Below are positions 118 through 39,001 of a DNA stretch of 39,001 nucleotides, in pieces. Source of the DNA: a virus (taxonomy: Duplodnaviria > Heunggongvirae > Uroviricota > Caudoviricetes); IMG/VR virus record IMGVR_UViG_2700989365_000006; one strand, 5' to 3'. Positions within the stretch are counted from its first letter, which is position 1; each line of letters begins with the position of its first letter. The position numbers and the translations under genes are program-made. The notes beneath the pieces were generated by a model. That model did not search any database. It was not told the DNA's origin and was given only the letters and a program-made list of their open reading frames with translations.

Positions 118-534
118 ATGGCAAAAGTTTTTACACAGGAAGAGCGTGAAAAAATTAAGGAGCAGGTTGTTGAGTTGGTACGCCAGAGTGGGCGCGAGAC
201 GTTAAGGCAACTGGAGGCCAAGACAGGTGCGACAAGATATCTGATGAGCATTCTTGCCAGAGAGTTGGTTGCCAGTGGCGATGTATACAACTCTGGTTAC
301 GGGTTATTCCCGTCTGAACAGGCGCGTAAGGATTGGAAAAACGCCCGCAAAAAACTATCCAGGGCAAAGGTGAAAAAAACGGTTGTGGTTGATCCTGACC
401 TTATCTGGTCATTACCAGACGGAGAAATACGCCGCTATGACAGGCGTCAGAACATAATCTGTCGCGAGTGCCGGAAGAGTGAAGTTATGAAACGTGTACT
501 GGCATTTTATCAAGGAAATCTTCGGTATTTATAG
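118..534 (+). CDS. hypothetical nin-region phage protein, possible HTH/winged-helix
   Basis: ORF 103-534; preferred start is ATG 118 preceded by GGAGG at 108-112. Basic protein with a helix-turn-helix-like stretch (TLRQLEAKTGATRYLMSILAREL). No family recognised. Confidence 0.5.
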   Translation: MAKVFTQEEREKIKEQVVELVRQSGRETLRQLEAKTGATRYLMSILARELVASGDVYNSGYGLFPSEQARKDWKNARKKLSRAKVKKTVVVDPDLIWSLPDGEIRRYDRRQNIICRECRKSEVMKRVLAFYQGNLRYL

Positions 535-672
535 ACGTTACTAGATCAAAGAGCATTAGTTCATATGTAAATTGACATTTTTCTGGCACAGGGGAGAGCT
601 AGCGTGGTTGTCCGCTTTGTGCCAATAGCGGACATTGCTGGCTCATGGTATGTTAGTTTAAGGAGGCAGGTT

Positions 673-1695
673 ATGCCCTGTATTTCGCTGTGGTATAATA
701 GTTGCGCAATTGATACAAGGGAGCGTTACATCGTGAAAATTGTTTTCGAGGTTAATGGAAAGAAAGTTCCACTAAAATCTTTAAAATACATAAGCAAAAA
801 AGATCAACTCGAAGTAATGAAAAACTGGTTCTTTGAAAACTTTGAAGATCCGGCAAATGCTTGTCCGTATGAAAGTAGAGAAGGTGGCTATGCTTACATA
901 TATGGCGGGCCGTATGATGCGAGCGAAGAACTACAATCCATCTTCGGTCAATATGTTAAATCTGAGTATATTGAGGAATTAGTAGATGAATTACAAACAC
1001 AATGTTTTGACTGGTCTGGAAACTCAAATAATATAGATGATTGGTACGATGATGATATCTACGACGCTGTAACGTCTTCCGGTAATCCGTATTTAAAATT
1101 CATTGATAATATCGATAAAATAAAAAAACTTGCAAAAGATAAAACTGAACAACAGCAAAAAAACCACTTGCTTAGTTTGCTCTACACGAATGTTATTACA
1201 GCTTTGGAAACGCTTTATGTTGAGCTATTCATTAATTCTATAGAGAAAGATGATGTCTACATAGCCAATTGTATAGAAAAAGGTAAGACTGAATTTAAAG
1301 TAAGCAAAGATATTGCTGCGTTGCCTTTCAAGGGTGAACCCATCGAGAAAATTAGGGGAGAGCTAATCAGGTCAATCAAGGAACACTTGATCAGTGCAAG
1401 CTGGCATAGCACTAAAAAGGTAATCGACCGCTATGAAGCTACATTCGATATAAAAGTACAAAAAGACTGTCCGATAGAAGCTATTGAATTGGCAACCCTC
1501 AATCGAAATCACTTAGTGCATCGTGGTGGAAAGGATAAAGAAGGGAACCTCGTAGTGATTACAGACCAGGATCTTGAAACGCTGATTGAAAATGCATCGA
1601 ACCTGGCAATTATGCTCTACAACAGTTTAAATGTAGCAACGAATAAAACCACCATTTTGCAACCAGATGACAAACCGTTCATTCATGAATTTTAA
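673..1695 (+). CDS. cargo protein A: unknown N-terminal domain plus C-terminal HEPN-like motif (candidate RNase toxin/effector)
   Basis: ORF 604-1695; ATG 673 follows a strong SD AGGAGG (661-666) with a 6-nt spacer (alternative GTG 733 after AAGGGAG). Visibly AT-rich versus flanks. C-terminal LNRNHLVHRG fits the HEPN R-x4-H signature. Acidic D/W/Y-rich N-terminal region. Confidence 0.55.
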   Translation: MPCISLWYNSCAIDTRERYIVKIVFEVNGKKVPLKSLKYISKKDQLEVMKNWFFENFEDPANACPYESREGGYAYIYGGPYDASEELQSIFGQYVKSEYIEELVDELQTQCFDWSGNSNNIDDWYDDDIYDAVTSSGNPYLKFIDNIDKIKKLAKDKTEQQQKNHLLSLLYTNVITALETLYVELFINSIEKDDVYIANCIEKGKTEFKVSKDIAALPFKGEPIEKIRGELIRSIKEHLISASWHSTKKVIDRYEATFDIKVQKDCPIEAIELATLNRNHLVHRGGKDKEGNLVVITDQDLETLIENASNLAIMLYNSLNVATNKTTILQPDDKPFIHEF

Positions 1696-1710
1696 TAGCG
1701 CAGGTCATAC

Positions 1711-2712
1711 ATGGATATTCGCACACGAAAGACAAAATTTTTAGAGTCGTTAGATTCAACTGAAGTGATACGCAAAGCAGTAAGTCTCGCTATAGATTGC
1801 ATTATTGATAATCATAATAGTAATGAAGATACCCCCTTAGTTATTACCAGCTATGATGATCTCTGTAGAATCCAGGTGCTAAATTATGTACAGGAGTTTT
1901 GCGAAGCTGCATTCCCTGATATGGATGAATATTACTTTAGTCCTAACATACTTCGCATCAACGGCAAGACTAGTGAAGAAGCTTGTATTAACTTAATTAA
2001 ACTCTTAAGAAGTACAAAAGGCATGCTATTCTGGTCCGATGCCCCATCGTGGTTCGCTAGCCTCCCCGACGGATTATTCCATGTTGTTAACATTGATCAA
2101 AAAATCGTTACTCGCGGCCTTAATAAGAAAAACTCTAAGCCGACAATAATCAATAAAGATTACAGTGTAGATACACTACTATCAGAGCTATTTTTGAATG
2201 GCGCACACATGGAGCAACCCAACGTACACAACGTTTCTGAGGGAAACATGAAGTTCTATGATGAATGCCATGCTGGATTAATCAGACCAATACCCGCTCC
2301 AATAGGCGCGTCATACGATGAAGAGATCACAATTAATTCTCCAGATTGGCAAAAGCTCGCGTGTGTAGCTTTACGCCGCTATCAGTCGAAGGAATGTCAT
2401 GACGGAATGCAATGGGATACAACCGATCATGGTTGGACTGATGTAATCGCGTATCCATTCGTCGAAGAAATACAATCAATGGATAATAGTGGTTATCGAC
2501 AATGTTTAGTTGGGCTGGTCACAATAAACAATTCAAATGCAAATTCTCCGTACCTATCTACCGTTTGGATACATCCATTTTATCGCAGGAGAGGGTTATT
2601 AAGTAAGTTATGGCCAAAATTACAAGAGTTATATGGAAGTAACTTCGAAATTGAGCGACCTAATGAAAATATGAAAGCATTTCTGAAAAGTGCGAAACAC
2701 GCAGATTACTAA
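1711..2712 (+). CDS. cargo protein B: unknown N-terminal region plus C-terminal GNAT-like (acyl-CoA N-acyltransferase motif A-like) segment
   Basis: ATG 1711 lies 15 nt after the stop of protein A, same strand, same AT-rich composition, so an operon. C-terminal CLVGLVTINN…STVWIHPFYRRRGLLSKLW resembles the GNAT beta4-alpha3 motif (V-x-P-x-Y-R-x-x-G), although the loop is degenerate. NGKTS is not a complete Walker A. Confidence 0.5.
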   Translation: MDIRTRKTKFLESLDSTEVIRKAVSLAIDCIIDNHNSNEDTPLVITSYDDLCRIQVLNYVQEFCEAAFPDMDEYYFSPNILRINGKTSEEACINLIKLLRSTKGMLFWSDAPSWFASLPDGLFHVVNIDQKIVTRGLNKKNSKPTIINKDYSVDTLLSELFLNGAHMEQPNVHNVSEGNMKFYDECHAGLIRPIPAPIGASYDEEITINSPDWQKLACVALRRYQSKECHDGMQWDTTDHGWTDVIAYPFVEEIQSMDNSGYRQCLVGLVTINNSNANSPYLSTVWIHPFYRRRGLLSKLWPKLQELYGSNFEIERPNENMKAFLKSAKHADY

Positions 2713-3262
2713 TTTATGAATCAGTCTGTGGAGTTAGGGTTGGTGTGAACAAGTAGGGTAAGAGCCTCAACGTGATGCTATGCCGACCTGCTCCCTGAGA
2801 ATTCACACAGAAGGCTGCTAGCAATGTCTGCAGATCGCTCAAAGCGGACTAAAATGTTGGCTTGTTTCTGACTTAGAGCATTTAAGGAAGTGCTGGTGGT
2901 GACTGGTTGTTGTGTTCCATTTCTACAGAATAAAATCACAGAAACTATACCCAATAGTTGTATTGAATCACTGACGAGACAGCCTCATATTTATCAGGAC
3001 TGGTGTGCGTCTAATACAGGGGGTTGTCGTGCTGGTTCTCAAATGTGCGCTGGCTATTGCGGCTGTAATGGCAATTTATTGTCTTGCTGTTGTTCTTATG
3101 GAGCGGCTTTCTGATTGATTACATACTGGCTAGAAAAAAGGTGTTACCTTGGTTTATCTTTGTCCGGCAAGGTGCGCTCATTAATCTTAAGTAAATTTAT
3201 TGCTCAAGTATTCAGATTACTTCTTATGGTTGAAGTCTCCTGTCAATGTAGAACCAATATAT

Positions 3263-3303
3263 TTACAAAAATGAGACCCGTCGGGGATAGCCCTGCCGGG
3301 TCT
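3263..3303 (-). terminator. rho-independent terminator downstream of the YeaR-like gene (possibly bidirectional)
   Basis: Inverted repeat AGACCCG (3274-3280) / CGGGTCT (3297-3303); on the minus strand the hairpin is followed by CATTTTTG. Lies between the convergent genes. Confidence 0.45.
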
Positions 3304-3332
3304 GACTGTTAAAGCATTTTTAATATGATCAT

Positions 3333-3671
3333 CTATTTTTTGGTGCTATAGACTTTTTCGCCCGAAAAGTCTGGAGCGACCCAAAAGTTAATATTAAACT
3401 GAGCATCATCGCTTAGTTCAACACGGTGCCAGTATTGTGGTGGGCTTGTTGCAAAAGCGCCAGCATTAATGACTACTTTTATCTCCGGTTCAGTAGCATT
3501 CTCATCAGTAAAACCATAATATGTTACAGTGCCTTCCATTACGCACAACTGCCCAAAAACACCTGCTGCTGTATTATGATGTGTTAATAACGCTGAAGGT
3601 ACGTTCTCTTTTGTGAAGAACGGAGTTGAGCGTTTGATTACCCAATCTTTAGGAATTCTCTTGTGTGTCAT
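3333..3671 (-). CDS. YeaR-like DUF1971 protein (tellurite-resistance-related family), prophage cargo
   Basis: Minus-strand ORF 3333-3695; preferred start is the internal ATG at 3671 preceded by GGAGGAGGTGG. Protein (MTHKRIPKDW…RSTPFF…YWHRVE…FNINFWVAP) resembles E. coli YeaR as recalled. Confidence 0.7.
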   Translation of the reverse strand: MTHKRIPKDWVIKRSTPFFTKENVPSALLTHHNTAAGVFGQLCVMEGTVTYYGFTDENATEPEIKVVINAGAFATSPPQYWHRVELSDDAQFNINFWVAPDFSGEKVYSTKK

Positions 3672-3686
3672 AACCACCTCCTCCAA

Positions 3687-3709
3687 AACATGCATTAAAA
3701 ATGCATCTT
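3687..3709. promoter_or_regulatory. NsrR-like operator (11-1-11 inverted repeat) upstream of the YeaR-like gene
   Basis: AACATGCATTA-A-AAATGCATCTT at 3687-3709. The right half-site reverse-complements to AAGATGCATTT, the NsrR half-site as recalled; the left half has 2 mismatches. It lies 16 bp upstream of the start codon, and a TTGACA -35-like hexamer is on the minus strand at 3726-3721. Confidence 0.4.
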
Positions 3710-4484
3710 TTGGAGGGTTATGTCAAGCTGTTATGAAACACATAATTGATATGTTGATTAGAGGAGAAGATAGAATAAATATGGTTGTTTTTCGTATAAC
3801 TATTTGTTTTACTTTTAGTTTATGCATTCTGTGTGTTAGGAATAAGTTATTAAAGTTTAATCAAAAAATCTCGATGTAGTCCACATAGATTACTGTTACT
3901 GAACCTTATTGTGTGTATTAGTTGTGTTCTGAAATTTCAGCTTAATTATTTATGATGTATTTTTTAACGATAAATATTTTCCCAGGATACCTTTACTGTG
4001 TATATAAATAAATTATATACGCATAAATAATGTAAAGGCGTCCTTTTAGATATATCTTATCAAATGTTAATGACTTGAGTGGGAAATATGATTCCAGCAA
4101 CTTATCATGTGGCTACTTTATAAAAATAATGCCCATATAAAACAACAAGCGAAAAGGATTACGGATAAAAAAGGAGCGAGATGTGCGAACTTGTTATTTT
4201 CCATGTTTAACCACCTTAAATAATTGATGATGACGGGATGATTGCATCTGTAATGCTTTTATTGAAATGTTATGATAAAAAAGAACTTTTGCATAACATT
4301 AAAATGTAATTTATCTAATCGTTTTTAATAATAAGTGTCGTATTTCTATCCTTGTACCAGCTATTTGATATGTAGTGTTTGTTCATGCTATGTGGGGCTT
4401 TACACCATAGCCAGTTTATTTATACTTTATTCGTCAGCCTGAACAACTGGCATCTGCTGCGCTGCGCCATCGAGAGATTGAGAA

Positions 4485-5084
4485 ATGGCGCATATACAAC
4501 TGGTCAAACAAACCTCTTCTGGTTTACTTCTCCCGGCGACGCCGGAGAGTTGCGATTTTCTGCATCAAATCAAAATAGGTGAGTGGATACACGCAGACTT
4601 TAAGCGTGTGTGTAACTACGCATTCCACAAGCGTTTTTTCAAACTCCTGCAACTGGGTTTCGATTACTGGACTCCGGTCGGTGGGGCGATCACGCCTCGC
4701 GAACGAGAACTGCTGTCTGGTTTCGTTGATTACCTGTGCGAATCAGTTGGTCGGGAACACACGCCAGCCCTGAGTGATGCCGCAGAGCAATACCTTAACA
4801 CCGTTGCGACTCGTAGAACCCGGGATACGGCGTTGCTAAAGTCGTTTGAGGCTTTCCGCGAGTGGGTAACCATTCAGGCCGGATTTTACACCGAGCATAT
4901 TTATCCGGACGGTAGCCGTGGGCGTCGGGCAAAATCCATCGCTTTTGCGAATATGGACGAAGTCGAGTTTCAGCAGGTTTATAAATCTGTACTGAATGTG
5001 CTGTGGAACTGGATTCTGTTCCGTAAATTCTCCTCTCAGGAGGAAGTTGAAAATGTGGCCGCACAACTACTGGAGTTTGCGTAA
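4485..5084 (+). CDS. DUF1367-family nin-region phage protein
   Basis: 199-aa ORF; sequence recognised as the DUF1367 family found upstream of Q in lambdoid prophages (for example Qin YdfU). Stop overlaps the next start (TAATG). Confidence 0.7.
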   Translation: MAHIQLVKQTSSGLLLPATPESCDFLHQIKIGEWIHADFKRVCNYAFHKRFFKLLQLGFDYWTPVGGAITPRERELLSGFVDYLCESVGREHTPALSDAAEQYLNTVATRRTRDTALLKSFEAFREWVTIQAGFYTEHIYPDGSRGRRAKSIAFANMDEVEFQQVYKSVLNVLWNWILFRKFSSQEEVENVAAQLLEFA

Positions 5085-5374
5085 TGGTGAATTTACGTAA
5101 AGCGGCTAAAGGCCAGATGTGCCAGATCAGAATCCCTGGCTACTGCAATCACAATCCCGAAACCTCTGTGCTGGCGCATTACAGGCTGGCGGGGACGTGC
5201 GGAACAGCGACAAAACCACATGATATGCAGGCGGCGATAGCCTGTAGCTCATGCCACGATCTAATCGACGGGCGGGTAAAAACCAGCGATTACACCAAAG
5301 AAGAATTGCGCCTGATGCATGCTGAAGGGGTTTTTCGCACACAAGAAATCTGGAGAAAGAAAGGTCATTTATGA
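5084..5374 (+). CDS. ybcO: YbcO-like DUF1364 protein (putative nuclease, Cys/His-rich)
   Basis: 96 aa; CQIRIPGYCNHNPETSVLAHYRLAG…AIACSSCHDLIDGR matches DLP12 YbcO as recalled. Translationally coupled on both sides. Confidence 0.65.
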   Translation: MVNLRKAAKGQMCQIRIPGYCNHNPETSVLAHYRLAGTCGTATKPHDMQAAIACSSCHDLIDGRVKTSDYTKEELRLMHAEGVFRTQEIWRKKGHL

Positions 5375-5913
5375 TTTACCCAACGAATACAGGAAAAAGC
5401 GGAGAACACCTTCGCCTCACCACGCTGGAAAGTGTCTGGATTCAGGGAAAACTACGTATGTGGGGGCGCTGGTCGTATATTGGCGGTGGCAGGTCAGGGA
5501 ATATGTTCAATCAGTTGTTGGCATCCAAAAAACTGACGAAAACAGCCATTAATGAAGCCCTGCGCAGAATGAAAAAAGCGGGAATAGAGAAAGCTGAGCT
5601 GGAAGCGTTTTTGCGAGAGATGATCAACGGCAAGCAAAAGAGCTGGCTGGCGCATTGTACTGATGCAGAGGCGTTATGTATTGATCGAGTCATAAGTGAG
5701 GTGCTGGCAGAGCATCCAGGATTGATTTGCATTCTCCGGCAACGCTATGAAGGGCGGGGGATGACTAAGCGCAAAATGGCTGAATTGCTAAATGATGCAC
5801 ACCCAGAGTGGTGTTTTAGCACATGCGAAAAACGGATTGCTAATTGGTTAGCTGTTGCTGAGTATGCCCTATATATTCCCATGCGTGAATCATTTGCTGA
5901 GAAAATGGCTTGA
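5371..5913 (+). CDS. late-gene antiterminator Q-like protein
   Basis: 180-aa ORF coupled to ybcO (ATGA overlap), immediately upstream of a strong intrinsic terminator and the lysis cassette, which is the canonical Q position. Unrelated to lambda Q in sequence, so the family call rests mainly on context. Confidence 0.55.
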   Translation: MIYPTNTGKSGEHLRLTTLESVWIQGKLRMWGRWSYIGGGRSGNMFNQLLASKKLTKTAINEALRRMKKAGIEKAELEAFLREMINGKQKSWLAHCTDAEALCIDRVISEVLAEHPGLICILRQRYEGRGMTKRKMAELLNDAHPEWCFSTCEKRIANWLAVAEYALYIPMRESFAEKMA

Positions 5914-6366: not shown

Positions 6367-6898
6367 GGGCTGGTTTATTGTATGCCAAATGATTATTAAA
6401 AAGGTTGTGTTAATAACAAGATCCGAAATAATATGCCTGCATATTTTTATCTTGCTTATATTCTGCATATTGTGCATAGCAGGCTCATCCCTGCAATCAA
6501 AACTGTATGATGAGTATTTTTTGTTTTCCTTTTTTCCAGTCATCTGATGATGACCTGCTTCTTTTTAATCCGGATCGACATCAGTTTTTTAAGATAATTC
6601 CTGCGAGTTATATGCATAAATGCCACAAACTCCGCATTTTATGTGGTTGGGAGTTGCCGGGCGCGCAGTGAGTTTGCTAAGAAAACTCCTGCATGGTGAA
6701 TCCCCCTGTGCGGTGGGGTGATACCATTAACCTTTTCTGTCGCCGACAGGTATCACGAACATTTTGTTCACCGGGAGGCACCCGGCACCATGCACTTCAA
6801 TAGATTCTCTCCACATTATGGATATTCTTTCAGAATATCCCACGCAGACTTTGTGTAAATGTTAACAAATGTGCGTTTTATTTGATCTGATTCGCTGT

Positions 6899-27290: not shown

Positions 27291-27988
27291 TGCAGGACAT
27301 ACAACAGGAAACGCTGAATGAATGCATTCGTGCGGAGCAGTCGGCCAGCGTGGTGCTCTGGGAAATCGATCTGACAGAGGTCGGTGGAGAACGTTATTTT
27401 TTCTGTAATGAGCAGAACGAAAAAGGTGAGCCGGTCACCTGGCAGGGGCGACAGTATCAGCCGTATCCCATTCAGGGGAGTGGTTTTGAACTGAATGGCA
27501 AAGGCACCAGTACGCGCCCCACGCTGATGGTTTCTAACCTGTACGGTATGGTCACCGGGATGGCGGAAGATCTACAGAGTCTGGTCGGCGGAACGGTGGT
27601 CCGGCGTAAGGTTTACGCCCGTTTTCTGGATGCGGTGAACTTCGTCAACGGAAACAGTGACGCCGATCCGGAGCAGGAGGTGATCAGCCGCTGGCGCATT
27701 GAGCAGTGCAGCGAACTGAGCGCGGTGAGTGCCTCTTTTGTACTGTCCACGCCGACGGAAACAGATGGCGCTGTTTTTCCGGGACGTATCATGCTGGCCA
27801 ACACCTGCACCTGGACCTATCGCGGCGATGAGTGCGGTTATCACGGTCCGGCGGTCGCGGATGAATATGACCAGCCAACGTCCGACATCACGAAGGATAA
27901 ATGCAGCAAATGCCTGAGCGGTTGTAAGTTCCGCAATAACGTCGGCAACTTTGGCGGCTTCCTTTCCATTAACAAACTTTCGCAGTAA
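27290..27988 (+). CDS. L: minor tail protein L
   Basis: 232 aa, near-identical to lambda gpL as recalled (MQDI.QETLNEC.RAEQSASVVLWEIDLTEVGGERYFFCNEQNEKGEPVTWQGRQY…), with C-terminal Cys cluster. Confidence 0.9.
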   Translation: MQDIQQETLNECIRAEQSASVVLWEIDLTEVGGERYFFCNEQNEKGEPVTWQGRQYQPYPIQGSGFELNGKGTSTRPTLMVSNLYGMVTGMAEDLQSLVGGTVVRRKVYARFLDAVNFVNGNSDADPEQEVISRWRIEQCSELSAVSASFVLSTPTETDGAVFPGRIMLANTCTWTYRGDECGYHGPAVADEYDQPTSDITKDKCSKCLSGCKFRNNVGNFGGFLSINKLSQ

Positions 27989-27993
27989 ATCCC

Positions 27994-28391
27994 ATGACAG
28001 AGACAGAATCAGCGATTCTGGCGCACGCCCGGCGATGTGCGCCAGCGGAGTCGTGCGGCTTCGTGGTGAGAACACCGGAGGGGGAAAGATATTTTCCCTG
28101 CGTGAATATTTCCGGTGAGCCGGAGGAGTATTTCCGGATGGCTCCGGAGGACTGGCTGCAGGCAGAGATGCAGGGTGAGATTGTGGCGCTGGTCCACAGC
28201 CACCCCGGTGGTCTGCCCTGGCTGAGTGAGGCCGACCGGCGGCTGCAGGTGCAGAGTGATTTGTCGTGGTGGCTGGTCTGCCGCGGGGCGATTCACAAGT
28301 TCCGCTGTGTGCCGCATCTCACCGGGCGGCGCTTTGAGCACGGGGTGACGGACTGTTACACGCTGTTCCGGGATGCTTACCATCTGGCGGG
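27994..28391 (+). CDS. K: tail protein K, N-terminal part (copy 1, interrupted at the N junction 28392)
   Basis: Matches lambda gpK N-terminus (MTETESAILAHARRCAPAESCGFVV…VALVHSHPGG…); the sequence jumps back into L after the N at 28392. Confidence 0.7.
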
Positions 28392-28392
28392 N

Positions 28393-29236
28393 ATGGTCAC
28401 CGGGATGGCGGAAGATCTACAGAGTCTGGTCGGCGGAACGGTGGTCCGGCGTAAGGTTTACGCCCGTTTTCTGGATGCGGTGAACTTCGTCAACGGAAAC
28501 AGTGACGCCGATCCGGAGCAGGAGGTGATCAGCCGCTGGCGCATTGAGCAGTGCAGCGAACTGAGCGCGGTGAGTGCCTCTTTTGTACTGTCCACGCCGA
28601 CGGAAACAGATGGCGCTGTTTTTCCGGGACGTATCATGCTGGCCAACACCTGCACCTGGACCTATCGCGGCGATGAGTGCGGTTATCACGGTCCGGCGGT
28701 CGCGGATGAATATGACCAGCCAACGTCCGACATCACGAAGGATAAATGCAGCAAATGCCTGAGTGGCTGTAAGTTTCGCAATAACGTCGGCAACTTTGGC
28801 GGCTTCCTTTCCATTAACAAACTTTCGCAGTAAATCCCATGACAGAGACAGAATCAGCGATTCTGGCGCACGCCCGGCGATGTGCTCCAGCGGAGTCGTG
28901 CGGCTTCGTGGTAAGAACGCCGGAGGGGGAAAGATATTTCCCCTGCGTGAATATCTCCGGTGAGCCGGAGGCGTATTTCCGTATGTCGCCGGAAGACTGG
29001 CTGCAGGCAGAGATGCAGGGTGAGATTGTGGCACTGGTCCACAGCCACCCCGGTGGTCTGCCCTGGCTGAGTGAGGCCGACCGGCGGCTGCAGGTGCAGA
29101 GTGATTTGTCGTGGTGGCTGGTCTGCCGCGGGGCGATTCACAAGTTCCGCTGTGTGCCGCATCTCACCGGGCGGCGCTTTGAGCACGGGGTGACGGACTG
29201 TTACACGCTGTTCCGGGACGCTTACCATCTGGCGGG
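28393..29236 (+). repeat. divergent duplicate of 27548-28391 (3-prime L plus 5-prime K), joined at N 28392
   Basis: Restarts at ATGGTCACCGGGATGGCGGAAGATC (same as 27548). The copies differ at scattered positions (for example EEYFRMAPEDW versus EAYFRMSPEDW in K), so they are different alleles. Confidence 0.85.
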
Positions 29237-29550
29237 AATTGAGATGCCAGATTTTCATCGTGAGGACGACTGGTGGCGTAATGGTCAGAATCTCTATCTG
29301 GATAATCTGGAGGCTACAGGGCTGTATCAGGTGCCGTTGTCAACGGCGCAGCCGGGCGATGTGCTGCTGTGCTGTTTTGGTTCATCGGTGCCGAATCATG
29401 CCGCCATTTACTGTGGTGACGGCGAGCTGCTGCACCATATTCCTGAACAACTGAGTAAACGAGAGAGGTACACCGACAAATGGCAGCGACGCACACACTC
29501 CCTCTGGCGTCACCGGGCATGGCACGCATCTGCCTTTACGGGGATTTGCA
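28839..29550 (+). CDS. K: tail protein K (copy 2, second allele; interrupted by the N at 29551)
   Basis: Matches lambda gpK through …RAWHASAFTGIC; the next base is N, then the sequence re-enters K at EIVALVHSHPGG. Confidence 0.7.
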
Positions 29551-29551
29551 N

Positions 29552-30080
29552 GAGATTGTGGCACTGGTCCACAGCCACCCCGGTGGTCTGCCCTGGCTGA
29601 GTGAGGCCGACCGGCGGCTGCAGGTGCAGAGTGATTTGCCGTGGTGGCTGGTCTGCCGGGGGGCGATTCACAAGTTCCGCTGTGTGCCACATCTTACCGG
29701 GCGGCGCTTTGAGCACGGGGTGACGGACTGTTACACGCTGTTCCGGGATGCTTACCATCTGGCGGGGATTGAGATGCCGGATTTTCATCGTGAGGATGAC
29801 TGGTGGCGTCACGGTCAGAATCTCTATCTGGATAATCTGGAGGCCACAGGGCTGTATCAGGTGCCGTTGTCAGCGGCGCAGCCGGGCGATGTGCTGCTGT
29901 GCTGTTTTGGTTCATCGGTGCCGAATCATGCCGCCATTTACTGTGGTGACGGCGAGCTGCTGCACCATATTCCTGAACAACTGAGCAAACGAGAGAGGTA
30001 TACCGACAAATGGCAGCGACGCACACACTCCCTCTGGCGTCACCGGGCATGGCACGCATCTGCCTTTACGGGGATTTGCA
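29552..30080 (+). repeat. duplicate of K internal segment 29022-29550, joined at N 29551
   Basis: GAGATTGTGGCACTGGTCCACAGCCACCCCGG recurs. Only this third copy continues through the K stop (30112, …GICNDLAAASTFV*) into I. Confidence 0.85.
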
Positions 30081-30657
30081 ACGATTTGGCCGCCGCATCG
30101 ACCTTCGTGTGAAAACGGGGGCCGAAGCCATCCGGGCACTGGCCACACAGCTCCCGGCATTTCGTCAGAAACTGAGCGACGGCTGGTATCAGGTGCGCAT
30201 TGCCGGGCGTGATGCAGGCGAAAATGAATTATCTGCCCGTCTTAATGAACCGCTGGCAAATGGTGCCGTGATCCACATCGTTCCGCGTCTGGCGGGTGCC
30301 AAAAGTGGCGGTGTGTTTCAGGCGGTGCTGGGTGCGGCGCTGATTGCGGTGGCATGGTGGAACCCTGTGGGCTGGCTGGGGGCCGCGGCTGTATCGGGTA
30401 TGTATGCAGCAGGGGCCAGTATGATCCTGGGTGGTGTGGCGCAGATGCTGGCACCGAAAGCCAGGACGCCCACGGCAGCCAGTACAGATAACGGCAAACA
30501 GAACACGTATTTCTCGTCACTGGATAACATGGTTGCCCAGGGTAATGTTCTGCCTGTTCTGTACGGGGAAATGCGCGTGGGGTCACGTGTGGTTTCTCAG
30601 GAGATCAGCACGGCAGACGAAGGGGACGGTGGTCAGGTTGTGGTGATTGGTCGCTGA
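30010..30657 (+). CDS. I: tail assembly protein I
   Basis: 215 aa; N- and C-termini match lambda gpI as recalled (MAATHTLPLASPGMARICLYGDLQRFGRRIDLRVKTGAEAIRALATQLP… …NTYFSSLDNMVAQGNVLPVLYGEMRVGSRVVSQEISTADEGDGGQVVVIGR). Overlaps the K 3-prime end as in lambda. Confidence 0.85.
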   Translation: MAATHTLPLASPGMARICLYGDLQRFGRRIDLRVKTGAEAIRALATQLPAFRQKLSDGWYQVRIAGRDAGENELSARLNEPLANGAVIHIVPRLAGAKSGGVFQAVLGAALIAVAWWNPVGWLGAAAVSGMYAAGASMILGGVAQMLAPKARTPTAASTDNGKQNTYFSSLDNMVAQGNVLPVLYGEMRVGSRVVSQEISTADEGDGGQVVVIGR

Positions 30658-30717
30658 TGCAAAATGTTTTATGAGAAACCGCCTGCGGGCGGTTTTGTCG
30701 TTTATGGAGCGTGAGGA

Positions 30718-33165
<2,448 letters not shown>

Positions 33166-33166
33166 N

Positions 33167-33969
33167 TGGGAGACGGCGACAGAGCTTGTGGAGGATACGC
33201 AGGCCATTGTCCGTTACGGTCGTAACGTCACGAAGATGGATGCCTTTGGCTGTACCAGCCGGGGGCAGGCACACCGCGCCGGGCTGTGGCTGATTAAAAC
33301 GGAACTGCTGGAGACGCAGACCGTGGATTTCAGCGTGGGTGCTGAAGGGCTTCGTCATGTACCGGGCGATGTCATTGAAATCTGCGATGATGACTATGCC
33401 GGTATCCGCACCGGCGGGCGCGTGCTGGCGGTGAACAGCCAGACCCGGACGCTGACGCTCGACCGTGAAATCACGCTGCCATCCTCCGGTACCATGCTGA
33501 TAAGCCTGGTTGACGGAAGTGGCAATCCGGTCAGCGTGGAGGTTCAGTCCGTCACCGACGGCGTGAAGGTGAAAGTGAGCCGTGTTCCTGACGGCGTTGC
33601 TGAATACAGCGTGTGGGGGCTGAAGCTGCCGACGTTGCGCCAGCGCCTGTTCCGCTGTGTGAGTATCCGTGAGAACGATGACGGCACGTATGCCATCACT
33701 GCCGTGCAGCATGTACCGGAAAAAGAAGCCATCGTGGATAACGGGGCGCACTTTGACGGCGACCAGAGCGGCACGGTGAATGGTGTCACGCCGCCAGCGG
33801 TGCAGCACCTGACTGCCGAAGTCACCGCAGACAGCGGGGAATATCAGGTGCTGGCGCGCTGGGACACGCCGAAGGTGGTGAAGGGGGTGAGCTTTATGCT
33901 TCGCCTGACCGTGGCAGCGGATGACGGCAGTGAGCGGCTGGTCAGCACGGCCCGGACGACGGAAACCAC
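33167..33969 (+). CDS. J: J internal fragment (re-copy of J from 31933), bounded by N 33166 and the N-run 33970-33980
   Basis: Restarts at TGGGAGACGGCGACAGAGCTTGTGGAG, equivalent to 31933 onward. Confidence 0.6.
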
Positions 33970-33980
33970 NNNNNNNNNNN

Positions 33981-34677
33981 GGTGAACAGCCAGACCCGGA
34001 CGCTGACGCTCGACCGTGAAATCACGCTGCCATCCTCCGGCACCACGCTGATAAGCCTGGTTGACGGGCAGGGGAATCCGGTCAGCGTGGAGGTCCAGTC
34101 CGTCACCGACGGCGTGAAGGTAAAAGTGAGCCGTGTTCCTGACGGTGTTGCTGAATACAGCGTGTGGGGGCTGAAGCTGCCGACGCTGCACCAGCGATTG
34201 TTCCGCTGCGTGAGTATCCGTGAGAACGACGACGGCACGTATGCCATCACCGCCGTGCAGCATGTGCCGGAAAAAGAAGCCATCGTGGATAACGGGGCGC
34301 ACTTTGACGGCGACCAGAGCGGCACGGTGAATGGTGTCACGCCGCCAGCGGTGCAGCACCTGACTGCCGAAGTCACCGCAGACAGCGGGGAATATCAGGT
34401 GCTGGCGCGCTGGGACACGCCGAAGGTGGTGAAGGGCGTGAGCTTCCTGCTCCGTCTGACCGTAACAGCGGATGACGGCAGTGAGCGGCTGGTCAGCACG
34501 GCCCGGACGACGGAAACCACTTACCGCTTCACACAACTGGCGCTGGGGAACTACAGGCTGACAGTCCGGGCAGTAAATGCGTGGGGGCAGCAGGGCGATC
34601 CGGCGTCGGTATCGTTCCGGATTGCCGCACCGGCAGCGCTGTCGCGGATTGAGCTGACGCCGGGCTATTTTCAGATA
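33981..34677 (+). CDS. J: J internal fragment, allele A (…[13 protein letters not shown]…[10 protein letters not shown]…)
   Basis: Overlaps the same J interval as 32196-32893 but with the lambda-like substitutions; bounded by Ns. Confidence 0.6.
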
Positions 34678-34678
34678 N

Positions 34679-35882
<1,204 letters not shown>

Positions 35883-35883
35883 N

Positions 35884-37799
35884 CTCGACCGTGAAATCAC
35901 GCTGCCATCCTCCGGCACCACGCTGATAAGCCTGGTTGACGGGCAGGGGAATCCGGTCAGCGTGGAGGTCCAGTCCGTCACCGACGGCGTGAAGGTAAAA
36001 GTGAGCCGTGTTCCTGACGGTGTTGCTGAATACAGCGTGTGGGGGCTGAAGCTGCCGACGCTGCACCAGCGATTGTTCCGCTGCGTGAGTATCCGTGAGA
36101 ACGACGACGGCACGTATGCCATCACCGCCGTGCAGCATGTGCCGGAAAAAGAAGCCATCGTGGATAACGGGGCGCACTTTGACGGCGACCAGAGCGGCAC
36201 GGTGAATGGTGTCACGCCGCCAGCGGTGCAGCACCTGACTGCCGAAGTCACCGCAGACAGCGGGGAATATCAGGTGCTGGCGCGCTGGGACACGCCGAAG
36301 GTGGTGAAGGGCGTGAGCTTCCTGCTCCGTCTGACCGTAACAGCGGATGACGGCAGTGAGCGGCTGGTCAGCACGGCCCGGACGACGGAAACCACTTACC
36401 GCTTCACACAACTGGCGCTGGGGAACTACAGGCTGACAGTCCGGGCAGTAAATGCGTGGGGGCAGCAGGGCGATCCGGCGTCGGTATCGTTCCGGATTGC
36501 CGCACCGGCAGCGCTGTCGCGGATTGAGCTGACGCCGGGCTATTTTCAGATAACTGCCACGCCGCATCTTGCGGTTTATGATCCGACGGTACAGTTTGAG
36601 TTCTGGTTCTCGGAAACGCGGATTACCGATATCAGGCAGGTTGAAACCACAGCCCGCTACCTTGGCGCGGGGCTGTACTGGATAGCCGCCAGTATCAATA
36701 TCAAACCGGGCCATGATTATTACTTTTATATCCGCAGTGTGAACACCGTTGGCAAATCGGCATTCGTGGAGGCTGTTGGTCAGCCGAGTGATGATGCATC
36801 CGGTTATCTGGATTTTTTCAAAGGCGAGATAGGGAAAACCCATCTGGCTCAGGAGCTGTGGACGCAGATTGATAACGGTCAGCTTGCGCCTGACCTGGCT
36901 GAAATCAGGACGTCCATTACGGATGTCAGCAATGAAATCACGCAGACCGTCAATAAGAAACTGGAAGACCAGAGTGCGGCAATTCAGCAGATACAGAAGG
37001 TTCAGGTTGATACAAATAATAACCTGAACAGCATGTGGGCTGTGAAGCTGCAGCAGATGCAGGACGGACGCCTTTATATCGCGGGTATTGGTGCCGGTAT
37101 TGAGAACACCCCTGACGGCATGCAGAGTCAGGTGCTGCTGGCGGCGGACAGGATTGCGATGGTTAATCCTGCGAATGGCAACACAAAACCGATGTTTGTT
37201 GGTCAGGGCGATCAGATATTCATGAACGACGTGTTCCTGAAACGCCTGACGGCCCCCACCATTACCAGCGGTGGAAATCCATCGGCATTTTCCCTGACTC
37301 CGGACGGAAAGCTGACCGCTAAAAATGCGGATATCAGTGGCAGTGTGAATGCGAACGCCGGGACGCTCAACAATGTCACGGTAAATGAAAACTGTACGAT
37401 TAAGGGCATGCTGGAGGCGACTCAGGTCAGAGGTGACTTCGTTAAAGCTGTATCCAAATCATTTCCGAAACAGGCTGGTACGTGGGGTAACACGGAAACA
37501 CCAAACGGGACGGTTACAGTCACCATAAGCGATGATCATAACTTTGACCGCCAGATTATTATTCCGCCCATTATTTTTAACGGTATAGCGTATGACGATC
37601 CGGGGAGCGGAAATAACCCAGGAGGCACGCGATACACGGGTTATGGTTTTGAAGTTCGCAAAAACGGCGTATTAATCGCATCCAGAGAAACTAAAGGTGC
37701 CATTCCCGGTAGTTACAGTGCAGTTATTGATATGCCTAGTGGTGGTGGTAGCGTCACTCTGGAGTTTAAGATTTTCCAGAAAGGCAATCAGGGGGCAGG
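35884..37799 (+). CDS. J: J fragment, allele A with a C-terminal receptor-binding region variant (…[24 protein letters not shown]… …[20 protein letters not shown]…)
   Basis: Bounded by N 35883 and N 37800; no stop codon reached. Confidence 0.6.
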
Positions 37800-37800
37800 N

Positions 37801-39001
37801 AAGGGCGTGAGCTTCCTGCTCCGTCTGACCGTAACAGCGGATGACGGCAGTGAGCGGCTGGTCAGCACGGCCCGGACGACGGAAACCACTTACCGCTTCA
37901 CACAACTGGCGCTGGGGAACTACAGGCTGACAGTCCGGGCAGTAAATGCGTGGGGGCAGCAGGGCGATCCGGCGTCGGTATCGTTCCGGATTGCCGCACC
38001 GGCAGCGCTGTCGCGGATTGAGCTGACGCCGGGCTATTTTCAGATAACCGCCACGCCGCATCTTGCGGTTTATGATCCGACGGTACAGTTTGAGTTCTGG
38101 TTCTCGGAAAAGCGGATTGCGGATATCAGGCAGGTTGAAACCACAGCACGCTATCTTGGCACGGCGCTGTACTGGATAGCCGCCAGTATCAATATCAAAC
38201 CGGGCCATGATTATTACTTTTATATCCGCAGTGTGAACACCGTTGGCAAATCGGCATTCGTGGAGGCCGTCGGTCGGGCGAGCGATGATGCGGAAGGTTA
38301 CCTGGATTTTTTCAAAGGCAAGATAACCGAATCCCATCTCGGTAAAGAGCTGCTGGAAAAAGTTGATCTGACGGAGGATAACGCCAGCAGACTGGATGAG
38401 TTTTCGAAAGAGTGGAAGGACGCTAACGATAAATGGAATGCGATGTGGGGCGTCAAAATTGAGCAGACCAAAGACGGCAAACATTATGTCGCGGGTATTG
38501 GCCTCAGCATGGAGGACACGGAGGAAGGCAAGCTGAGCCAGTTTCTGGTTGCCGCCAATCGTATCGCGTTTATTGACCCGGCAAACGGGAATGAAACGCC
38601 GATGTTTGTGGCGCAGGGCAACCAGATATTCATGAACGACGTGTTCCTGAAGCGCCTGACAGCCCCCGCCATTACCAGCGGTGGCAGTCCTCCGGTATTT
38701 TCCCTGACATCAGACGGAAAGCTGACCGCTAAAAATGCGGATATCAGTGGTAGTGTGAATGCGAACTCAGGAACGCTCAACAATGTCACGATTAACCAGA
38801 ACTGTACGATTAAGGGCATGCTGGAGGCGACCCAGGTCAGAGGGGATTTCGTTAAAGCTGTATCAAAAGCCTTCCCGAAAAAAGTCGGTACGTGGGGTAA
38901 CACGGAAACACCAGACGGTACGGTTACAGTCACCATCAGCGATGATCATAACTTTGACCGCCAGATTATTATTCCGCCCATTATTTTTAACGGTATAGCG
39001 T
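37801..39001 (+). CDS. J: J fragment, third C-terminal variant (…[14 protein letters not shown]… …[45 protein letters not shown]…), partial at the window end
   Basis: Starts after N 37800 inside the J repeat and runs to the window edge without a stop. Confidence 0.6.

Follow-up and report, generated by a model that had tools for sequence, protein, structure and literature searches.

Two adjoining genes of a Rac-like prophage, encoding a predicted HEPN ribonuclease and a GNAT-fold protein, are probably separable cargo rather than a toxin-antitoxin pair

Do two neighbouring prophage genes, one encoding a predicted HEPN ribonuclease (RNase) and the other a protein with a GNAT fold, work as a single module, or do they share a locus while acting separately? 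The question is raised by a 39,001-nucleotide stretch of Caudoviricetes DNA (IMG/VR record IMGVR_UViG_2700989365_000006; hereafter the window), in which two co-oriented open reading frames (ORFs) lie on the + strand with a 15-nt gap between them, gene A ending at 1695 and gene B spanning 1711-2712. An earlier note, made from the letters of the window, had described this arrangement, whose coordinates are reproduced here, and had proposed that the pair may constitute an undescribed HEPN plus GNAT toxin-antitoxin (TA) or two-component abortive-infection (Abi) module. Our analysis leads us to favour, with modest confidence, a different reading, in which A would be a standalone abortive-infection RNase under the control of an N-terminal HEPN/RES-NTD1 domain (hereafter NTD1) and B a separable acetyltransferase. 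As judged from the comparisons that follow, A and B are probably not a TA pair.

The genomic distribution of the two genes bears most directly on the question. Both are present in 209 of 5426 complete E. coli genomes, and the pair is also found in a Serratia grimesii island (A 98% and B 95% identical), in Aeromonas beside TIR and SIR2-STALD genes (A 87%, B 78%), and on a metagenomic contig, L158 (A 78%, B 74%). The spacer between the genes (1696-1710, + strand; TAGCGCAGGTCATAC) contains a weak AGG Shine-Dalgarno (SD) sequence, and its length of 15 nt is kept in E. coli, Serratia, Aeromonas and L158. Conservation across genera under purifying selection (dN/dS of 0.09-0.14 for A and 0.24-0.36 for B) indicates that both genes are more than chance ORFs. 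Pairing is restricted to one young clade, in which A is at least 77% identical and which comprises E. coli, Serratia, Aeromonas and the single metagenomic contig. Where A is at most 74% identical, B is missing from all 34 loci (four in Dickeya, four in satellite-like islands of E. coli and 26 on IMG/VR contigs); conversely, A is lacking from all 11 loci where the identity of B does not exceed 62%. At one further locus (L156), an A homologue of 76% identity with a C-terminal tail of the pair type stands by itself, adjoining sucD. Altogether, 35 loci have A without B, and no small partner is conserved among them; at least 18 have B without A, A-deleted derivatives included. The association of A with B is thus a young and clade-restricted one, and the adjacency is not kept beyond that clade.

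Natural derivatives of the locus point in the same direction. In Rahnella, Enterobacter and two IMG/VR loci, where B is about 86% identical, the leader and promoter are retained and fused directly to the final 40-60 nt of the A ORF, which is followed by B. The junctions are of two kinds, joining window positions ~715 to 1634 and ~677 to 1657, which implies that A was lost by deletion at least twice; at these loci purifying selection on B continues (dN/dS 0.27). The reverse polarity, in which A would have entered a locus that originally held only B, was weighed and discarded, since there are two junctions and both keep codons of the C-terminal tail of A. Insertion sequences have separately interrupted one gene or the other in E. 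coli: in strain SF-173 (L098) an IS1A copy splits B near codon 187 and leaves A intact, in AHB12 (L099) IS1A removes the N-terminus of A and leaves B intact, and in MB56 (L097) two ISSen4 copies lie one on either side of A. Taken together, the solo loci, the deletions and the insertions argue that neither gene needs the other, and the module proposed in the earlier note is not supported by this comparison.

As a separate observation on the A-deleted loci (L004 5817-6000, L090 and L102-L105; L091 4878-5000), a residual in-frame ORF of 34 or 13 aa persists, which in both deletion types ends on the A stop codon, 15 nt before B. Such a remnant would fit selection that maintains translational coupling to B, although the evidence is weak, the chance expectation being about 1 in 9.

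These data speak first to a classical addiction module, in which B would be a GNAT toxin acetylating aminoacyl-tRNA in the manner of TacT or AtaT, with A as its antitoxin, or in which A would be an obligately neutralised toxin. GNAT toxins and HEPN toxins are both established, and the two genes are AT-rich mobile cargo. However, the solo occurrence of B, also where A has been deleted, means that B needs no A for its neutralisation; no RHH or DUF1778 antitoxin gene adjoins B in the inspected loci; the solo A loci offer no conserved small partner; and B, a two-domain protein of 333 aa, is unlike the GNAT toxins of about 170 aa. Distribution and derivatives exclude B as a toxin with A as antitoxin, and make A as a toxin with B as antitoxin improbable, though possible inside the pair clade. 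The addiction reading is therefore largely refuted by distribution, and we consider it highly improbable.

What, then, would each protein do alone? Gene A (733-1695, + strand) encodes 320 aa with an HEPN/RES-NTD1 + HEPN architecture, and is predicted to be a standalone RNase effector. In a fold search, its C-terminal domain adopts the all-alpha helical-bundle fold of HEPN proteins, and the matches include the AMPylated HEPN toxin structures 8xdj and 7ae2. The LNRNHLVHRG segment singled out in the earlier note for its R-x4-H arrangement is present 57 residues before the C-terminus (320-aa numbering), the codons of R258-N-H-L-V-H263 occupying 1504-1521 (+ strand) with R264 next. In an alignment of 34 homologues (26-87% identity), R258, H263 and R264 are invariant down to 26% identity. 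The assignment of A to the HEPN proteins, originally made from the short motif, is in this way borne out by both the fold and the invariant signature.

The N-terminal part of A, the NTD1 region (~aa 1-115; 733-1077, + strand), matches PF18870 (HEPN_RES_NTD1) in the window protein (22.2 bits, E 1.9e-4, below the gathering threshold of 27.4) and in 34 of 34 homologues (E<=0.01; best 1e-6), several of which carry a precomputed PF18870 annotation. Within the same alignment, W32, F33, P40, P45, E50, G51, G52, G58, G59 and P60 form the invariant set of this domain. PF18735 (HEPN_RiboL-PSP) is matched by 15 of the 34 homologues (best E 9.9e-10) and not by window A at E<=0.01. NCBIfam yielded nothing useful for A or B, and sequence-profile searches of the PDB returned chance matches only. 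In RefSeq both proteins are named 'hypothetical protein', and their PHROG matches (phrog_17908 and phrog_16994) are of unknown function.

Nor is the architecture of A undescribed: Anantharaman et al. (2013; PMC3710099) had already listed MAE_18760-family HEPN domains joined to HEPN/RES-NTD1 and labelled them Abi-like. For the HEPN version of the NTD1 architecture, our literature search turned up no experimental study; searches for the RefSeq accessions and for any named HEPN+GNAT defence system likewise returned none. Judged by its domains, A is a new member of an already catalogued HEPN Abi-like architecture whose RES sibling, aRES, is a proven defence protein.

Gene B (1711-2712, + strand) encodes 333 aa, with an N-terminal family-specific domain (~aa 1-190) and a C-terminal GNAT-fold domain (~aa 195-333). 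The segment VWIHPFYRRRGLLSKLW, which the earlier note had likened to the GNAT beta4-alpha3 motif with a degenerate loop, is indeed present, and a structure search recovered the GNAT alpha/beta fold for the C-terminal domain. The beta4-alpha3 region, WIHPFYRRRGLL (2566-2601, + strand), contains a degenerate version of the Q/RxxGxG/A loop that holds the coenzyme A (CoA) pyrophosphate: among B homologues R292 (2584-2586) is invariant, the loop Gly varies (G/R/K/Q), and the final G/A is replaced by L/M. A motif-B-like N318..A..F324 is also conserved. The best Foldseek matches are protein acetyltransferases, the protein-lysine type being closest, and many of the other fold matches are aminoglycoside or polyamine acetyltransferases.

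Homologues of B are about 330 aa long and come only from Gammaproteobacteria (Enterobacterales, Aeromonas, Shewanella, Marinomonas, Idiomarina and others); a few of them bear a GNAT name at NCBI. A profile of the N-terminal half retrieved 24 representatives from 1.84 billion proteins; apart from two weak outliers, these are B-like proteins or short fragments, and in this search the domain was neither fused to nor paired with other HEPN proteins. Pfam gave nothing consistent for the N-terminal half. From these profile searches, the N-terminal domain appears limited to its own small family, and B itself is predicted to belong to a small, uncharacterised family of two-domain acetyltransferases.

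From the domain architectures, folds, invariant residues, genomic distribution, deletions and cassette boundaries observed here, we infer an RNase activity, a trigger and a defence phenotype for A, and acetyl transfer to a substrate for B. In the mechanism that we favour, A would be a single-protein effector of the abortive-infection type acting without a partner. Its NTD1 would be the regulatory or sensing part and its C-terminal HEPN domain a metal-independent RNase with R258-x4-H263 as the active site; upon phage infection, NTD1 would release or assemble this active site, leading to RNA cleavage and growth arrest. B would be co-transcribed with A, probably translationally coupled to it, and yet functionally separable. 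It may act as a two-domain acyl-CoA-dependent acyltransferase, probably directed at proteins, conferring a benefit independent of A and being neither antitoxin nor toxin to it.

A two-component system is the rival that the properties of the proteins themselves bring up. In that case B would acetylate A and keep its RNase off until infection, in a type VII-like manner comparable to the action of MNT on HEPN, or B would act as a sensor for A. The tight operon with its retained spacer, the joint divergence of A and B under purifying selection, and the likeness of the GNAT domain to protein-lysine acetyltransferases would all fit such a relationship; modifier-controlled HEPN toxins provide a precedent, two AMPylated ones being among the structures that match the A fold, and HEPN + enzyme dyads have been postulated (PMC3710099). 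Nevertheless, the distant homologues of both genes without exception lack the presumed partner, a pair-clade A stands solo in L156, SF-173 tolerates an intact A beside an interrupted B, B is kept under selection once A is lost, and the N-terminal domain of B is never found fused to or paired with other HEPN proteins. On balance, we regard regulation of A by B as unlikely, although not negligible.

Several points weigh against the standalone effector and separable acetyltransferase that we prefer. Four genera have retained the pair under purifying selection, always with the same 15-nt spacer, and this retention could reflect functional coupling instead of hitch-hiking. SF-173 is one isolate only and still encodes B residues 1-187, so that neutralisation of A by the N-terminal half of B is possible in that strain. 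Window A itself falls below the PF18870 cut-off, its membership resting on its homologues, and the sensor function of NTD1 is our inference, the role of this domain being not defined in the aRES study (bioRxiv 10.64898/2026.01.28.702374). In PADLOC-DB v2.0, which has no model for either protein, A has noise matches only (E>=0.01) and B none. Finally, B scores 19.9 bits against Pfam PF00583, under the cut-off of 20.7, and in view of its degenerate CoA-binding loop it might be a pseudo-enzyme.

The reading of A as a protein of 320 aa depends on where its translation begins. The ATG at 673 and the AGGAGG at 661-666, which the earlier note had taken as start codon and SD of A, and the TTGACA hexamer that it pointed out at 572-577 are all present as letters. 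Their reading as start signals and promoter of A does not hold. The ATG is ATT in Aeromonas and the AGGAGG counterpart is degenerate in Rahnella and Enterobacter (AGAGTG or AAGGTG), and this start was rejected. In contrast, the GTG at 733 (ATC-GTG-AAA-ATT), with GGAG 9 nt 5' of it, is kept in E. coli, Serratia and Aeromonas; homologues of A from other genera are 310-320 aa long with the N-terminus MK(I/V)VF, and RefSeq also starts A at 733. The start of gene A is therefore, as a best reading of these alignments, placed at GTG 733 rather than ATG 673. As for TTGACA 572-577, it has no acceptable -10 and sits outside the conserved cassette, in backbone common to phages without A and B, and was rejected as a promoter. 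A better promoter candidate is the extended -10 TGgTATAAT at 691-699 (+ strand), conserved as TGgTA(T/C)AAT: it reads TGGTACAAT in Serratia, Rahnella and Enterobacter and TGATACAAT in Aeromonas, is retained at the A-deleted loci, and falls within the first 20 codons of the ATG 673 reading frame. Its absence from the output of our -35/-10 scan is attributable to a weak -35. The leader folded no better than shuffled sequences (z 0.63), and an Rfam scan of 500-4600 gave no match.

Homology among unrelated contexts runs from 609/610 (at least seven left flanks) to 2849 (at least five right flanks), delimiting 2.24 kb (610-2849) that consist of inverted hairpin repeats, a candidate promoter, A and B. 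The left terminal inverted repeat (33 bp, 610-642) contains the hairpin GTCCGC-N12-GCGGAC at 610-633, and the right one, GCTAGCAATGTCTGCAGATCGCTCAAAGCGGAC, at 2817-2849, is supported by the end of homology and by the repeat match. Between 610-642 and the reverse complement of 2817-2849, 26 of 33 positions agree, a match reached by none of 2000 resampled sequences (maximum 22), and both arms have the form of a GTCCGC-N12-GCGGAC hairpin. The cassette encloses no transposase, target-site duplications flanking the repeats are not evident, and the Aeromonas copy of the pair lacks the repeats.

The left hairpin is not peculiar to this cassette. It also lies 3' of the DUF977/LygF gene in phages without A and B, namely Tritos (L106) and Evi (L107), and in a survey of 48 IMG/VR contigs (L108-L155) it was followed by at least nine kinds of sequence. 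The A-B cassette occupies this slot in 19 of the 48 contigs and a 595-aa DUF7380 + DUF4209 protein in 16; a PDC-S15/FRG candidate (5), a 310-aa protein with a YRSKAVHG R-x4-H motif (2), a helix-turn-helix (HTH)-cupin regulator with a small GNAT (2), SRAP + ASCH genes and others make up the rest. DUF4209 is an HEPN family (PMC3710099), and several of the cargos other than A-B are HEPN-type. Every cargo closes with an R-type hairpin ahead of the hokD backbone. Shared left and right hairpins around varied cargo indicate that the slot is a hairpin-delimited hotspot in which A-B is one cargo among several that can replace one another, and the claim of the earlier note that the pair sits in a cargo or defence hotspot is well supported by these alternatives. 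In our favoured reading, 610-2849 would accordingly be a self-contained cargo cassette occupying a slot of variable content in a Rac-like lambdoid prophage. Elsewhere, in Enterobacter and Rahnella islands (L102 8774-8830 and 10606-10624; L004 7327-7400), right- and left-type ends stand back to back, 18 nt apart, an arrangement suggestive of adjoining cassettes whose ends are related, a GIY-YIG gene being carried by one of them.

A more speculative extension combines this mobility with the regulatory possibility discussed above. In the pair clade, B may have been recruited as an acetyl-CoA-dependent switch on A, a HEPN-GNAT analogue of HEPN-MNT in which lysine acetylation holds the RNase off or tunes its trigger, the unit being shuttled from phages to defence islands and back as a transposase-less, hairpin-bounded cassette that is one of a family of interchangeable defence cassettes. 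We hold this composite proposal to be doubtful.

The genomic neighbours of the solo genes bear on a possible role in defence. Solo A homologues occupy defence or moron hotspots: they adjoin a PD-T7-5 homologue (L057), a PDC-M68B candidate (L048) and an ApeA-NTD1 protein in a P2-like element (L046), while others have an integrase of a satellite-like island as neighbour, adjoin HigBA (in Dickeya) or lie in a lambdoid nin region. Loci with B only adjoin SIR2/ThsA-like and HerA defence genes, and the Serratia pair locus (L003) adjoins a restriction-type AAA/REase gene. Against a defensive role, one may propose that the pair is lysogenic-conversion cargo, A being an RNase for regulation of prophage or host RNA and B an acetyltransferase of a small molecule (antibiotic, polyamine or metabolite). 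The many aminoglycoside and polyamine acetyltransferases among the fold matches of B would agree with this, as would the occupants of the same slot in other phages, an ordinary 142-aa GNAT with an HTH-cupin regulator in Evi and SRAP + ASCH in another variant. Yet the NTD1 of A is common to the proven defence protein aRES, both genes recur by TIR, SIR2-STALD, HerA, PD-T7-5 and ApeA-like genes, and the best Foldseek matches of B are protein acetyltransferases; a non-defence function is in our estimation rather unlikely.

A related arrangement was noted in a metagenome-assembled genome of Psychrosphaera (L012, 969-2483), where a distant B (43% identity) is followed 15 nt on by a 504-aa SIR2/ThsA-like protein, that is, a different effector at the B-adjacent position.

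The wider locus agrees with a prophage setting. The 5' neighbour is a DUF977 gene with the PHROG label 'Ren-like exclusion protein', and on the 3' side follow, in order, a DUF1971/TehB-like gene (- strand), DUF1367, YbcO and a DUF1133/Q-like gene. An identical E. coli locus is annotated within a Rac-like prophage (recET, kilR, sieB, ydaSTUV ... lysis genes), which identifies the site as the nin region of a Rac-like lambdoid prophage, as the earlier note had placed it. DUF977 was considered as a third component of the system and rejected, since the pair lacks this neighbour in Serratia, in Aeromonas and in part of the E. coli contexts. GC content is 33-42% within 750-2700 compared with ~50% at 1-450 and 4500-5700, so that the genes are, as previously described, richer in AT than the flanking phage genes; the AT-rich tract extends past B, up to ~4450. 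In this regard, 2850-4480 is still AT-rich and includes the DUF1971/TehB-family gene (3333-3695, - strand), beyond which ~3700-4480 (~780 bp, 26-35% GC) contains no long ORF before DUF1367. Just 3' of the cassette, the sequence is similar to the backbone that precedes hokD in other prophages.

Two further features of the window lie away from the cassette. At 6661-6847 (+ strand), 3' of the Q-like gene, Rfam STnc100, a gammaproteobacterial small RNA, is matched with 86.6 bits (gathering score 47). In the tail-tip/host-specificity region (27545-38742), segments are repeated directly at 93-100% identity, one family having five or six unevenly spaced copies (e.g. at 32219, 33453, 34004, 34702 and 35879) and another three (28177, 29022 and 29552); the J-like ORF there is in fragments, which may reflect real duplication or an assembly artefact.

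Should A protect against phage, HEPN/RES-NTD1 would emerge as an effector-agnostic control module, driving a RES NADase in aRES and an HEPN RNase here, and the two proteins would form a matched pair for finding what NTD1 senses. B, which recurs in defence islands and survives the loss of A, is a candidate single-gene system by itself. The GTCCGC-N12-GCGGAC hairpin offers a simple handle for collecting more prophage cargo, much of it of HEPN type. For annotation, the start of A is corrected, and the locus illustrates that TA modules should not be inferred from adjacency in a single genome.

It is instructive, finally, to set the cassette and its proteins beside known systems. Mobile insertion cassettes and the exchange of modules at boundary sequences in lambdoid phages are a known type of cargo exchange, and resemble the A-B cassette in being transposase-less cargo with short inverted repeats in many contexts; the A-B repeats differ in being hairpins that also mark a fixed backbone slot, with no target-site duplication seen and no cognate transposase or recombinase identified. 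The GNAT toxins TacT, AtaT, ItaT and KacT share with B the GNAT fold and the location on mobile elements, but they are single-domain proteins of ~170 aa with an adjacent RHH/DUF1778 antitoxin, whereas B has 333 aa, a unique N-terminal domain and a solo existence in many genomes. HEPN-MNT (HepT/MntA, type VII TA) is an obligate pair whose MNT member modifies the toxin by AMPylation; in the present locus a GNAT takes the place of MNT, the HEPN gene comes first, and co-occurrence fails beyond one clade.

Closer to A stands the MAE_18760-family HEPN + HEPN/RES-NTD1 protein (PF18870 + PF18735; PMC3710099), with the same architecture and a predicted Abi-like role. Its description is purely computational and includes no GNAT partner, the dyad reported there being HEPN + ParA/Soj ATPase. 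In aRES (Osterman et al.; bioRxiv 10.64898/2026.01.28.702374), PF18870 is joined to RES in a standalone protein with experimentally demonstrated anti-phage activity, which upon infection causes NAD+ depletion and growth arrest. Like A, aRES is a single protein of defence islands in which an N-terminal PF18870 precedes a toxic effector domain; in aRES this domain is a RES NADase making ADPR-1''-phosphate, whereas A has a predicted HEPN RNase domain, so that A possesses NTD1 and nonetheless falls outside aRES, its C-terminal domain being HEPN and not RES. HepS of the Gifsy-1 prophage is a single-protein HEPN Abi that is triggered by the siphovirus tail-tip protein J and cleaves tRNA anticodon loops (Nature 2026, PMC13043305), and it differs from A in having no NTD1 domain. 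In light of these comparisons, A is most likely the HEPN-effector counterpart of aRES and, in functional terms, a parallel to HepS.

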